A DNA stretch of 64,000 bases from Escherichia phage vB_Eco_T-01, in sequence record PQ438391.1. One strand, given 5' to 3'. Made by a program: the position numbers and the translations under genes. Every line of letters begins with the position of its first letter. Position 1 is the stretch's first letter. The notes beneath the pieces were generated by a model, which had not been told where the DNA came from, did not search any database, and was given only the letters and a program-made list of their open reading frames with translations. This document shows, in pieces, positions 39,365 to 49,351 of the stretch.

Positions 39365-39598
39365 ATGAAAACTTTCAAAGAGTTTATCGCTGAATCTTCT
39401 GATGTAAAAGTTGAGTTTATTTACACCGGCAAGAAAGATAAAATGGGTGAAATGCCTCATGGAGTTCTTCGTGATGCATTAGATAATTTCGGTCAACTCG
39501 CCGCAGAAGATTACGGTGATAAAATTGTTGTTACTGGTCCTGCTGCAGTTATTGAAAAATGGGCAGCAGAAAATAAATCAATTTTTCGTAAAAAATAA
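39365..39598 (+). CDS. internal protein with capsid-targeting leader (IPI-like)
   Basis: N-terminus 'MKTFKEFIAES' matches the leader consensus cleaved by gp21; early promoter upstream; track ORF starts at 39299. Confidence 0.7.
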   Translation: MKTFKEFIAESSDVKVEFIYTGKKDKMGEMPHGVLRDALDNFGQLAAEDYGDKIVVTGPAAVIEKWAAENKSIFRKK

Positions 39599-39628
39599 GT
39601 TTACTTTTAGATAGGGTAGTGATACTAT
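39599..39628 (+). promoter_or_regulatory. early promoter with palindrome-flanked -10
   Basis: -35 39599-39604, -10 39623-39628; 9-bp inverted repeat GATAGGGTA/TACCCTATC brackets the -10. Confidence 0.65.
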
Positions 39629-39656
39629 TACCCTATCAACTACCGAGGAGAATAAA

Positions 39657-39842
39657 ATGAAACGTTGTGAATTAATTCGAAATGTTGCTATTGCAATTTC
39701 TGCTTCTGCTTTTAGTTTTTCAATGTTTGTTGGATTTATATGCGGATTATTGACTACAGCAGAAAATGTGTTTTCACTTGTAGTAGCATTTTTAATTGGT
39801 TTAATTGCTATCGTTATGGATAAAATTTCTAAAGGTGAATAG
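39657..39842 (+). CDS. small membrane protein
   Basis: 61 aa, two hydrophobic segments; early promoter at 39599-39628. Confidence 0.5.
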   Translation: MKRCELIRNVAIAISASAFSFSMFVGFICGLLTTAENVFSLVVAFLIGLIAIVMDKISKGE

Positions 39843-39843
39843 A

Positions 39844-40224
39844 ATGTACAAAGTGTATGCGGATTATCAGGCTAATCCATCTGAAAAGCCAGGTTGTCAA
39901 ATTGGATGGGCTCATGATACTTTGCTTGAAGCAGTAGATGCTGCTCAAAAATTGGGATATAAATATGTAGAGATTGTTCAACCATCAGGAAAGGTTATTA
40001 CTCTTGAAGAGTTCAATAACATTAAACCAAACTTTTTACTTTTTGCAGGTGATAATTATTATCCTCGTGGTGGATATGCTGATTTAATCGCGAAAGCCGC
40101 CACTGAAGATGAACTCCGTGACATTATCAAAGAAAATGAAAACAAACCAGATTATGGTTCCAATCGCTTTGATTGGTGGCAAATTGTAAATGCCAATACG
40201 CATACTATTGTTGATGAAGGTTGA
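39844..40224 (+). CDS. hypothetical protein
   Basis: 126 aa from ATG at 39844 with SD AGGTGA. Confidence 0.55.
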   Translation: MYKVYADYQANPSEKPGCQIGWAHDTLLEAVDAAQKLGYKYVEIVQPSGKVITLEEFNNIKPNFLLFAGDNYYPRGGYADLIAKAATEDELRDIIKENENKPDYGSNRFDWWQIVNANTHTIVDEG

Positions 40225-40226
40225 TA

Positions 40227-40514
40227 ATGATTCTTTATGCGAAAGTATCGTCCATTGAAAATGGATATAAATATGATCAAGACGCGGCTAAAGCCTTGAT
40301 TGATGATTATGGCATTTTAACATTTTTTGAAGTTGAAAAGGTTTACATTGACCGTTCATCTTCACAAGTTAAATTAGTAAAGGAAGACCGTAAATTTAAT
40401 ACAGTAAATTTTGATTTCTTTATTGAAACAGAAAAAGGTCCTCTTGAATATGATATTTTCAAGAATCCTTTGGGTCTTGAATGCATCGTAAATATGTATT
40501 ATCATAAATGGTAA
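40227..40514 (+). CDS. hypothetical protein
   Basis: 95 aa, SD GAAGG upstream. Confidence 0.5.
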   Translation: MILYAKVSSIENGYKYDQDAAKALIDDYGILTFFEVEKVYIDRSSSQVKLVKEDRKFNTVNFDFFIETEKGPLEYDIFKNPLGLECIVNMYYHKW

Positions 40515-40515
40515 A

Positions 40516-40542
40516 TATGCTTTAAGAATTATTTGTTATTAT
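40516..40542 (+). promoter_or_regulatory. middle promoter (MotA box 'taTGCTTtA' plus -10 TATTAT) for tRNA array
   Basis: MotA box at 40516-40524, -10 at 40537-40542, about 70 nt upstream of tRNA-Gln. Confidence 0.5.
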
Positions 40543-40611
40543 TAACTCATATCGCACTGATTAATACCCTCTATCATCAAGGGTTCTTATTTGAGAGCCT
40601 TTGTTAATAAT

Positions 40612-40684
40612 TGGGAATTAGCCAAGTTGGTAAGGCACTGGATTTTGATTCCAGGATGCAAAGGTTCGAGTCCTTTATTCCCAG
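40612..40684 (+). tRNA. tRNA-Gln (anticodon UUG)
   Basis: cloverleaf folded by hand: 7-bp acceptor, loop 'ttTTGat', T-loop TTCGAGT. Confidence 0.85.
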
Positions 40685-40685
40685 C

Positions 40686-47153: not shown

Positions 47154-47590
47154 AAACATTATCAGCTGGTATTATCTTTATGACAGAAGATAAAGATTTA
47201 TTCATGGGACGGGTTACTGGTTCTCGTAAGCCTGGAATGATGGCACATCGCTGGGATATTCCAAAAGGCCGTGTAGAAAATTCTGATTTGAGCGCACTAG
47301 ATGCAGCACGAAGAGAATGCTTAGAAGAGACCGGTTTTAGCAATTATAATCCAGACCTTCTAGAAGACCTAGGTGTATTTAAATATTCTAGTAATAAAGA
47401 CTTACAGCTGTTTTATTATACGATTCCAGTAGAGCATGAGATGTTTAGAAATTGCCATTGCGAGTCTTATTTTGAAAATAAAGATGGTGTTATGATTCCA
47501 GAGATGGATGCTTTTGCTCTTATTCCTCGTACTCAGTGGCAATATGTGATGGGTCCTTCACTTTACCGAATAATGAACAGCCTCTTTTAA
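47150..47590 (+). CDS. nudE: Nudix hydrolase
   Basis: Nudix box 'GRVENSDLSALDAARRECLEETGF'; start set at SD-preceded ATG 47150 (track ORF 47135). Confidence 0.85.
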   Translation: MKTLSAGIIFMTEDKDLFMGRVTGSRKPGMMAHRWDIPKGRVENSDLSALDAARRECLEETGFSNYNPDLLEDLGVFKYSSNKDLQLFYYTIPVEHEMFRNCHCESYFENKDGVMIPEMDAFALIPRTQWQYVMGPSLYRIMNSLF

Positions 47591-47592
47591 TT

Positions 47593-47613
47593 TATAAATA
47601 CCTTCTATAAATA
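47593..47613 (+). promoter_or_regulatory. tandem late promoters, two TATAAATA (lysozyme e)
   Basis: TATAAATA at 47593-47600 and 47606-47613 upstream of e. Confidence 0.7.
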
Positions 47614-47626
47614 CTTAGGAGGTATT

Positions 47627-48115
47627 ATGAATATATTTGAAATGTTACGTATAGATGAAGGTCTTAGACTTAAAATCTATAAAGACACCGAAGGCTATTA
47701 CACTATTGGCATTGGTCATTTGCTTACCAAAAGTCCATCACTTAGTGTTGCCAAATCTGAATTAGATAAAGCTATTGGACGTAATTGCAATGGTGTAATT
47801 ACAAAAGATGAGGCTGAAAAACTCTTCAATCAGGATGTTGATGCTGCTGTTCGCGGAATTCTGAGAAATGCTAAATTAAAACCAGTTTATGATTCTCTTG
47901 ATGCTGTTCGCCGCTGCGCATTGATTAATATGGTTTTCCAAATGGGAGAAACCGGCGTGGCAGGATTTACTAATTCTTTACGTATGCTCCAACAAAAACG
48001 CTGGGATGAAGCAGCAGTAAATCTAGCCCAATCTAAATGGTATCGTCAGACACCTAATCGCGCGAAACGCGTAATCTCAACATTTAAAACAGGAACTTGG
48101 AAAGCGTATATATGA
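47627..48115 (+). CDS. e: endolysin (T4 lysozyme)
   Basis: 162 aa; '[33 protein letters not shown]' identical to T4 lysozyme as recalled; two TATAAATA promoters upstream. Confidence 0.95.
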
Positions 48116-48393
48116 AAACATATAGTGAATTTTTATCAGAATCTATTCTTAACGAAGCTACTGACACATTTGCAACTAAGCTAGGTGCAGCTTTGGTTGA
48201 AGCTGAAAGTCTATTAGCACGTATTTCTGAACTTGCTAGTAAGATAGATACTCGCAAATTTGAACGTACCAGCGATATCGTTAAGCTTGAAGCCTTGTTG
48301 CGTATGTGCGATAAACCAGAAGAAATCGCTAAGAACGGCTCGCTAATGAAACAACGTCTTGAAAAATATATTTCAGGCGCTTCAGAAAAATAG
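48112..48393 (+). CDS. internal protein with capsid-targeting leader
   Basis: N-terminus '[11 protein letters not shown]' from ATG 48112 overlapping e stop (ATGA). Confidence 0.7.
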
Positions 48394-48394
48394 T

Positions 48395-48424
48395 GTTTAC
48401 TTCCTCCAAGGACTTTGATACTAT
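48395..48424 (+). promoter_or_regulatory. early promoter (GTTTAC-N18-TACTAT) for denV
   Basis: extended -10 TGaTACTAT. Confidence 0.65.
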
Positions 48425-48451
48425 ACATTCATCAACTACTTGGAGGAAATT

Positions 48452-48868
48452 ATGACTCGTATCAATTTAACACTTGTTTCTGAACTGACCGACCAACATC
48501 TTATGGCTGAGTATCGTGAATTGCCGCGTGTTTTTGGTATAGTTCGTAAACATGTGGCAAATGGTAAGCGGGTTAAAGATTTTAAAATATCTTCCGAGTT
48601 TATTTTAGGCTCTGGTCATGTTACGTTCTTTTACGATAAGTTAGAATTTTTGCGAAAGCGTCAATCAGACATTATAACGGAATGCTTAAAACGTGGGTTC
48701 AATATAAAAGATACTGAAGTTCCTGACATCAGCGATATTCCAGCAGAATGGAAAAATGATTATAATCCATGCAAATCAGCTATTAAATTGAGTCAACAAC
48801 GACTCGATGAAAAAATTTTAATGAAGCCACACTGGTATAAATACTACGGTAAAAATATTTACATTTAA
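48452..48868 (+). CDS. denV: endonuclease V, pyrimidine-dimer DNA glycosylase
   Basis: '[28 protein letters not shown]' matches T4 DenV; 138 aa from ATG 48452. Confidence 0.9.
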
Positions 48869-48877
48869 AGGAAACAC

Positions 48878-49351
48878 ATGAAAACATATCAAGAATTTAT
48901 CACTGAAGCAGCTATTAATTCTCAAATTATTGCTGAATCTTTTACTGATCTTTTGAAATTTAAAAAAGGTCAAAAAATCACTGCTGTATTGGATGATGGT
49001 ACAGAAGTTGAGATGGATGTACAGGGATATAATTATGCAGTAGATGGAAAACTGTATAATAAATCTCACGCTAAATTTGATTCATTTGACGACTTTGTTA
49101 ATACAGTTGAAGATGAAAAAACTCGTAGATCAATTTCAACTGGCGATGCTAAGGTTCTTATGGCGCACGGTCATGAACGTATCCGCGCCAAACAGAATAA
49201 AATGGGTGAAGATAATTTTGCATTAGTTGGTTATCAATCTGGTAAGCAAACTTATGGCTATCAGCGTACTGCTACCATGTATAACAAAAATGGTAAAATC
49301 GCTTTCGTGAATAGCAAAGGCTCTATTCAGTACGTCAAATCATTCAAATAA
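48878..49351 (+). CDS. internal protein with capsid-targeting leader
   Basis: N-terminus 'MKTYQEFITEA'; 157 aa. Confidence 0.7.
   Translation: MKTYQEFITEAAINSQIIAESFTDLLKFKKGQKITAVLDDGTEVEMDVQGYNYAVDGKLYNKSHAKFDSFDDFVNTVEDEKTRRSISTGDAKVLMAHGHERIRAKQNKMGEDNFALVGYQSGKQTYGYQRTATMYNKNGKIAFVNSKGSIQYVKSFK

Follow-up and report, generated by a model that had tools for sequence, protein, structure and literature searches.

Five candidate internal-protein genes at three variable loci of a T4-like coliphage, two of them in a terminator-bounded site downstream of rnaC

The 64,000-nt stretch of Escherichia phage vB_Eco_T-01 analysed here (PQ438391.1; hereafter the window, 64 kb) carries five open reading frames (ORFs) on the + strand whose products begin with a leader like that of the internal proteins (IPs) of phage T4. 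They lie at 39365-39598 (77 aa), 42389-42862 (157 aa), 42984-43547 (187 aa), 48112-48393 (93 aa) and 48878-49351 (157 aa). We refer to the second and third, which share the site between rnaC and e.8, as IPa and IPb. The window matches many Tequatrovirus genomes at 95-97% identity, the best match being Escherichia phage Kelasse, and by this similarity the phage is assigned to Tequatrovirus. The window and the part of T4 between gene 1 and vs.8 are collinear, with T4 read on the opposite strand.

Scanning the six frames of the window with the expression MK[TS][YF].[EQ]F[ILV].E[AS] returned exactly five matches, every one at the start of an ORF, and 200 shuffles of the window returned none. An earlier note on this DNA had claimed that five ORFs begin with the T4 capsid-targeting leader and that T4 has three such genes; the coordinates of the five are exact, with no match elsewhere in the six frames, and the T4 annotation agrees on the number three. 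In T4 IPIII the first 10 residues are enough for incorporation into the head, and experiments have assigned targeting to residues 4 (aromatic) and 7 (Phe) and processing by gp21, which cuts after L/I-x-E, to residues 8 (I/L) and 10 (Glu) (reviewed in PMC9026906). In all five proteins of the window, position 4 is Y or F, position 7 is F, position 8 is I or L and position 10 is E. The gp21-type motifs at 8-10 and the small residue that follows are, in gene order, IAE↓S, LNE↓A, LTE↓A, LSE↓S and ITE↓A (arrow, predicted cut). Because the DNA coding for the leaders has just 18-26 of 33 nt in common from one leader to another, the leader appears to be a functional element that is conserved at the protein level and not copied DNA. 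The bodies behind the leaders appear unrelated, as had been noted before: without their leaders, the five proteins have no BLASTP match to each other or to T4 IpI, IpII and IpIII (Ip1, Ip2 and Ip3; all E > 0.1).

The rnaC-e.8 site has as its conserved left flank two small stable RNA genes on the + strand (42001..42264), an rnaD-like gene (42001-42119, 86% to T4) and rnaC (42126-42264, 98.6% to T4). After rnaC there is an intrinsic terminator, TERM-A copy 1 (42312..42345, +), which is present in T4 and T2 as well and forms the left boundary of the IPa cassette. TERM-A copy 2 (42867..42900, +) is identical to it and forms both the right boundary of IPa and the left boundary of the IPb cassette. 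Each copy forms a GC-rich hairpin of 10 bp (-20.3 kcal/mol) with a T-run behind it; the identity is exactly 34 bp and does not extend to either side, and there are only two copies in the window. The bracketing of 42389..42862 by identical 34-bp terminator-containing repeats, which the earlier note had described, is therefore exact in its coordinates, length and structure. The right boundary of the IPb cassette is TERM-B (43556..43580, +), a different and weaker hairpin (-11 kcal/mol), and its T-run runs into GGTATCTAGGCCTTTCCAG..., the same sequence as that found after TERM-A in the empty site of T4 and T2.

IPa (42389..42862, +; 157 aa) is a candidate internal protein gene with the leader MKSYAQFLNE↓AVLNE↓A, in which the cleavage motif is duplicated in the version carried by the window (FLNEA-VLNEA). 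The sequence TATAAATA, the T4 late-promoter consensus, lies at 42345..42352 (+), where it abuts the T-run of TERM-A 44 nt before the IPa start; it is kept in six of the seven IPa-bearing relatives examined. The second candidate, IPb (42984..43547, +; 187 aa), is equivalent to RB14ORF136 and has the leader MKTYAEFLTE↓A. Upstream of IPb there is just AATAAATA and a weak sigma-70-like match.

We compared the occupancy of the rnaC-e.8 site in ten phages, including this window. The site is empty in T4 and T2, where rnaC is followed by a single terminator copy and then directly by the upstream region of e.8. It holds IPa only in slur04 and GiZh, IPb only in RB69, where the ORF is frameshifted, and both genes in this window, Kelasse, Sfk20, F13076 and ST2. 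On the left the order is rnaC - [TERM-A] - (A/G)GTATAAATA ... IPa ... TAACATTC - [TERM-A], and on the right it is [TERM-A] - AGTTTGAATCAC ... IPb ... TAATTTTAAAT - [TERM-B] - GGTATCTAGGCCTTTCCAG ... e.8. The junction of the empty site reads [TERM-A] - GGTATCTA(A/G)GCC. These junctions are alike in all the phages compared and every novel joint is at the end of a terminator T-run, and each cassette is therefore delimited as a 5' region, an ORF with a capsid-targeting sequence (CTS) and a terminator. The earlier suggestion that this is a substrate for cassette exchange gains from the alignment of the flanks across related phages, with its four occupancy states and its junctions at the terminator, and the position of the breakpoints in the T-run supports the view that cassettes may be gained and lost by recombination at the repeat. 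In a rough count of megablast junctions, IPa-to-IPb was found in ~124 records and IPa-to-e.8 in ~278. Megablast joins pieces up to ~570 bp apart, so that queries for the empty and IPb-only junctions also score on genomes that contain IPa, and the counts for these two states are unusable because of this confounding. A terminator scan of IMG/VR yielded 5 loci only, too few for a survey.

In tblastn searches IPa was found in 511 phage records and IPb in 164, and ~750 records match the flanks of the site. Both proteins are 'hypothetical' or 'uncharacterized' in every named record seen, and in GiZh the IPa ORF has not even been called. The only family match of either is phrog_2280, of 'unknown function', in PHROGs. 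Among 1.84 billion representative proteins, a profile search identified just 13 that belong to the IPa family. Those most distant from IPa, which are far diverged, still start with MLKFNEFLAE, MINFSDFLNE or MKSFSSFLNE, and the distant relatives in other T4-like phages retain the leader, with a recognisable L/I-x-E in five of six. In the structural model of IPa (predicted local distance difference test score, pLDDT, 76) a small four-helix N-domain (residues 18-71) is connected by a Pro/Lys-rich linker, which is disordered, to a long helical hairpin. The model of IPb is weak (pLDDT 61) and has the same layout. The shared phrog_2280 and the shared layout suggested that IPa and IPb might be paralogues, which neither BLASTP nor a profile-profile comparison supported (hhalign probability 16%). 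T4-like phages of Klebsiella and Yersinia keep the IPa N-domain at 50-58% identity and have an unrelated domain in place of the C-terminal half. The IPa family is thus a domain mosaic across T4-like genera, in which one of two unrelated C-terminal helical domains comes after the conserved N-domain (AGKYSYKD...AWKSL) and the Pro/Lys-rich linker. The RB69 copy of IPb (L012 5922-6484) is split by the frameshift into ORF149c and ORF148c, and is either a pseudogene or a sequencing error; RB69 is the sole IPb-only genome examined.

The ORF at 39365..39598 (+; 77 aa; leader MKTFKEFIAE↓S) lies in the classical ipI locus, between 57B and trna.4. Its product is identical in sequence to IpVI of Yersinia phage PST (AGR46087.1, annotated by the Krisch laboratory) and matches GiZh ipVI and phrog_8111, 'internal virion protein', which places it by similarity in the Ip6 family. 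In the phages with junctions read, an early-promoter block (TAATTTCACAAAGTTGTTTACA...GTGATACTATTA) is repeated before each CTS-ORF of the ipI locus, and here this repetition gives rise to an identical 24-bp direct repeat, GTAGTGATACTATTACCCTATCAA, on each side of the Ip6 gene. The upstream copy (39318..39341, +) is inside an early sigma-70-type promoter block (TTTACA-17-TACTAT at 39302-39330), an early-promoter match for Ip6, and the downstream copy (39616..39639, +) is in the promoter block of trna.4. The Ip6 gene is therefore a second repeat-bracketed IP cassette, which is absent from the earlier note. The number of CTS-ORFs at the ipI locus varies from 0 (slur04) to 3 (F13076).

At the e/denV locus, the ORF at 48112..48393 (+; 93 aa; RB69ORF127c type; leader end ↓SILNE↓A) clusters in BLAST with T2 ip5 and GiZh ipV, though it is visibly divergent, and by this measure it is assigned as a divergent member of the Ip5 family. 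Its start overlaps the stop of the lysozyme gene e (47627-48115) in the ATGA at 48112-48115, so that translational coupling is possible. The lysozyme ends in ...TWKAYI here and in Kelasse, compared with ...TWDAYKNL in T4, T2 and four other phages, which points to a recombination joint within the 3' end of e. Members of the Ip5 family are found at the ipI locus in T2, GiZh and Sfk20 and are fused to the end of e by the ATGA overlap here and in Kelasse, and therefore one family occupies different IP loci. The last of the five genes (48878..49351, +; 157 aa; leader MKTYQEFITE↓A) belongs, as judged from its match to Pfam DUF7412 (E = 1e-95), to the Ip4 family, represented by T2 ipIV. A second TATAAATA late-promoter consensus (48836..48843, +) is located 42 nt before the Ip4 start, within the 3' end of denV. 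In the region compared, the ten phages have 2-6 CTS-ORFs each, drawn from 11 body families. The presence or absence of CTS genes differs among close relatives, and these genes behave as accessory genes.

The order of genes on the + strand is gene 1, 57A, 57B, ORF 39365, trna.4/.3/.2, eleven tRNA genes, ORF 41651, rnaD and rnaC, followed by ORF 42389, ORF 42984, e.8 to e.3, an ORF for a predicted transmembrane protein, nudE and lysozyme e, and then by ORF 48112, denV and ORF 48878. The tRNA array (40612-41632) has eleven genes versus eight in T4, the extra ones being Tyr, Asn and His; one tRNA with a CAU anticodon is called Met here and Ile in some annotations, and the array is without segB. 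Another variable slot lies between tRNA-Arg and rnaD, where there is a 116-aa ORF (41651-42001) that is not at this position in T4 and is found in T2, slur04, Sfk20 and RB69 (ORF150c). A 54-aa ORF (44118-44282) between e.8 and e.7, with an early-promoter-like block of its own, is missing from T4 and found in some relatives (slur04; RB69 ORF145c is of equal length). The rnaD-like gene is much less conserved than rnaC. A 2025 paper reported that a convergent single-nucleotide polymorphism arose in the rnaD gene of phage BW1 as it adapted to ECOR34, with the neighbouring genes treated as hypothetical (PMC12685909). We note that BW-1 has an IPb homologue.

Virion association has been reported for relatives of two of the five proteins. 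In purified virions of Yersinia phage fD1 analysed with liquid chromatography coupled to tandem mass spectrometry, g140 was particle-associated under the stricter threshold, as were g129 (Ip4) and g146 (a head protein of the ipI locus), and the flanking e.8 product was not listed (PMC8309999). The g140 product has 157 aa and is nearly identical to IPa. The presence of this orthologue in fD1 particles is supportive, not conclusive, for the packaging of IPa.

Functional evidence comes from T4. Ip1, Ip2 and Ip3 each inhibit a distinct GmrSD type IV enzyme (PMC12373910), and Ip3 works when expressed in the host cytoplasm without a CTS (PMC12373910, PMC9391042). Because these three proteins each act on a different GmrSD enzyme, the description of the five proteins as candidate injected anti-defence effectors, given in the earlier note, is a fair one. 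By analogy with T4, the five are most likely injected factors that would each counter a specific host defence. Sequence searches of Pfam, PHROGs, NCBIfam and the PDB returned just DUF7412 (for Ip4) and PHROGs annotated as internal virion or head proteins, with nothing informative for IPa or IPb.

Taken together, the data make it likely that the window holds five T4-type Ip genes, spread over three hypervariable loci, whose products are injected cargo and which are exchanged between phages as cassettes. The loci would be 57B/trna.4 with Ip6, rnaC/e.8 with IPa and IPb, and e/denV with the Ip5-like gene and Ip4. The leaders, the family memberships, the architecture of the loci, the occupancy polymorphism and the breakpoints can be read directly from the genomes compared. 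The function of the CTS, the gp21 motif, the targets of Ip1-3 and the virion association of the IPa and Ip4 orthologues are taken from the literature. In the scheme that we propose, a CTS of ~10 residues would dock the product onto the scaffolding core of the prohead, and the prohead protease gp21 would then remove the leader by cutting after Glu10 of I/L-x-E. The small mature protein would remain in the DNA-filled head and enter the host with the genome, where it would act within the first minute as a counter-defence effector against one host system, in the way that T4 Ip1, Ip2 and Ip3 act on distinct GmrSD enzymes. The genes would form self-contained cassettes, made up of a promoter or 5' untranslated region, a CTS-ORF, and a terminator or the next promoter. 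Such cassettes may be gained, lost and moved between phages and between loci through homologous recombination at short flanking regulatory repeats, which would be the 34-bp terminator at the rnaC site and the early-promoter block at the ipI locus. The joints at the rnaC site are those expected if direct repeats underwent deletion or if a repeat-flanked cassette were integrated. We infer both the anti-defence role and the mechanism of recombination.

Several observations weigh against this interpretation. When ip4-10 were screened against GmrSD variants there was no reproducible hit (PMC12373910), and no connection to a known anti-defence protein emerged from our fold and family searches. In mature form, IPa, IPb and Ip4 have isoelectric points (pI) of 9.1-9.5 and are basic, as T4 Ip1-3 are. 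The mature forms of Ip6 and of the Ip5-like protein depart from the basic T4 IPs in having a near-neutral pI of 6.3-6.5. IPb is known from relatives at >= 90% identity (at least 90%) only, with no diverse ones. The virion support covers the orthologues of IPa and Ip4 in fD1 only, and the fD1 proteome was permissive, detecting 113 phage proteins out of 277 along with 672 from the host (PMC8309999). For the phage of this window we infer the packaging, cleavage and injection of the five proteins. As to exchange, there are 1-3 nt differences between the TERM-A copies of Kelasse, GiZh, Sfk20 and F13076, so that their exact identity is not universal, and comparative patterns of this kind locate exchanges and not their mechanism.

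An alternative view of IPa and IPb is that they are dispensable components of the prohead core or of DNA condensation, with a structural or charge-neutralising task in the head and no role in the host. The two mature proteins, at pI 9.5, would suit such a task, as would the predicted helical hairpins and the Lys/Pro-rich linker, which have no enzyme-like fold, and the lack of anti-GmrSD activity in ip4-10 points in the same direction. However, very close relatives differ in whether they have IPa and IPb, and neither gene occurs in T4 or T2, which argues for an accessory, host-dependent role, and the T4 Ips of known function all act against restriction; we consider a purely structural role unlikely. 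The leader of IPa and IPb could also be a scar of recombination, copied along with the translation-initiation sequence, in which case the proteins would be ordinary cytoplasmic accessories. This would agree with their annotation as hypothetical in all the named records seen and with the lack of virion evidence for IPb, but it sits badly with the leader codons, which differ at many synonymous or non-critical positions with the four functional ones preserved. Additionally, the distant IPa relatives have retained the leader, five of six with a recognisable L/I-x-E, and the IPa orthologue of fD1 was listed as particle-associated when the product of the flanking e.8 was not. We regard a scar as very improbable.

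The rnaC site might likewise be explained without exchange at the repeat, if the two 34-bp copies were independently maintained terminators and the polymorphism arose from illegitimate or homing-endonuclease-driven events elsewhere. Terminators are expected behind a stable-RNA gene and behind a late gene, both TERM-A copies are strong hairpins with T-runs, and homing endonuclease genes such as segB are nearby in relatives. Nevertheless, the novel junctions in the ten genomes fall precisely at the end of the hairpin and T-run, and the sequence behind the last terminator is that behind the single terminator of empty sites. T4-like phages are known to recombine at composite stem-loop and promoter motifs, with loss of the DNA between tandem copies as one outcome (PMC4122927), and we think it quite improbable that the repeats are independent terminators. 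Cassette exchange at the repeat is thus retained as the preferred explanation.

The five genes resemble T4 ipI, ipII and ipIII in the logic of the leader (aromatic residue at 4, F at 7, I/L-x-E at 8-10), in their small size, in the neighbourhoods of 57B-trna.4 and e-denV, and in the late-promoter consensus before two of the five. They differ in that the five bodies are not detectably homologous to those of T4 and in that two of the genes sit in a locus that is empty in T4; the T4 ip genes have been described as lying in two loci (PMC12373910). Ip6, Ip4 and the Ip5-like gene are members of the polymorphic Ip4-Ip13 set of T-even phages, in which, as here, the number, order and identity of the CTS-ORFs vary between conserved regulatory blocks. 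IPa and IPb differ from this set in lying at a third site, rnaC-e.8, and in having no Ip name in the records seen. The Ip4-Ip13 genes were reportedly described by Repoila et al. in 1994 (EMBO J 13:4181), according to papers that cite it.

Modular shuffling in T4-like phages has been attributed to promoter-early stem-loop (PeSL) elements (Arbiol 2010; Comeau, Arbiol & Krisch 2014, PMC4122927), and the authors explicitly tied this shuffling to earlier observations at the IP locus (PMC4122927). The rnaC-e.8 site is like PeSLs in having short stem-loop and promoter motifs at indel boundaries in a hyperplastic region, and in having direct repeats around single ORFs, as would suit cassettes that are excised and integrated. 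TERM-A shares with PeSLs the position at indel or replacement boundaries between close relatives. In contrast, the stem-loop here is the strong rnaC terminator, and copy 1 is fused to the late-type TATAAATA and not to a sigma-70-like early promoter, copy 2 being without TATAAATA. A PeSL combines a stem-loop with a sigma-70-like early promoter and a Shine-Dalgarno sequence, and only a weak 9/12 sigma-70-like match follows TERM-A copy 2. The promoter blocks of the ipI locus fit the early-promoter part of a PeSL.

Earlier publications already cover the leader and the polymorphic IP loci, as well as shuffling at conserved regulatory blocks and the action of Ip1-3 against restriction (Repoila 1994; Comeau 2014; Silas 2025). 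The third locus after rnaC, IPa and IPb as CTS proteins and the four-state terminator-bounded site were not found in annotation or in the literature covered, which did not include Repoila 1994, so that an earlier mention is possible. Within these bounds, the new elements are a third IP locus, two candidate families that had gone unrecognised, and a cassette flanked by terminators. That rnaC-e.8 is a third, unrecognised IP locus, with IPa as a common injected modular effector against some host defence, is a proposal we make tentatively, as one that stands a little short of probable.

The established picture of internal proteins is unchanged by these findings. The rnaC-e.8 site provides a very clean natural case of cassette gain and loss at a 34-bp repeat, convenient for measuring the rate of exchange, and it could be a neutral insertion site for engineered CTS-tagged cargo. 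Injected internal proteins are the first counter-measure of the phage, and most of the other Ip families are without a known target. Recognition of IPa and IPb as CTS proteins would add two more candidates to plating screens on wild hosts, with IPa the stronger of the two, as it is present in hundreds of genomes (tblastn) and has one orthologue in virions. If our proposal for IPa is true, the protein would be modular, with a conserved N-domain, a Pro/Lys-rich linker and a C-terminal domain swapped wholesale in the Klebsiella and Yersinia relatives, and it would be among the commonest CTS proteins of sequenced T4-like coliphages (511 records versus ~750 that match the flanks). It is missing from the laboratory phages T4 and T2, and this may explain why it has not been studied.

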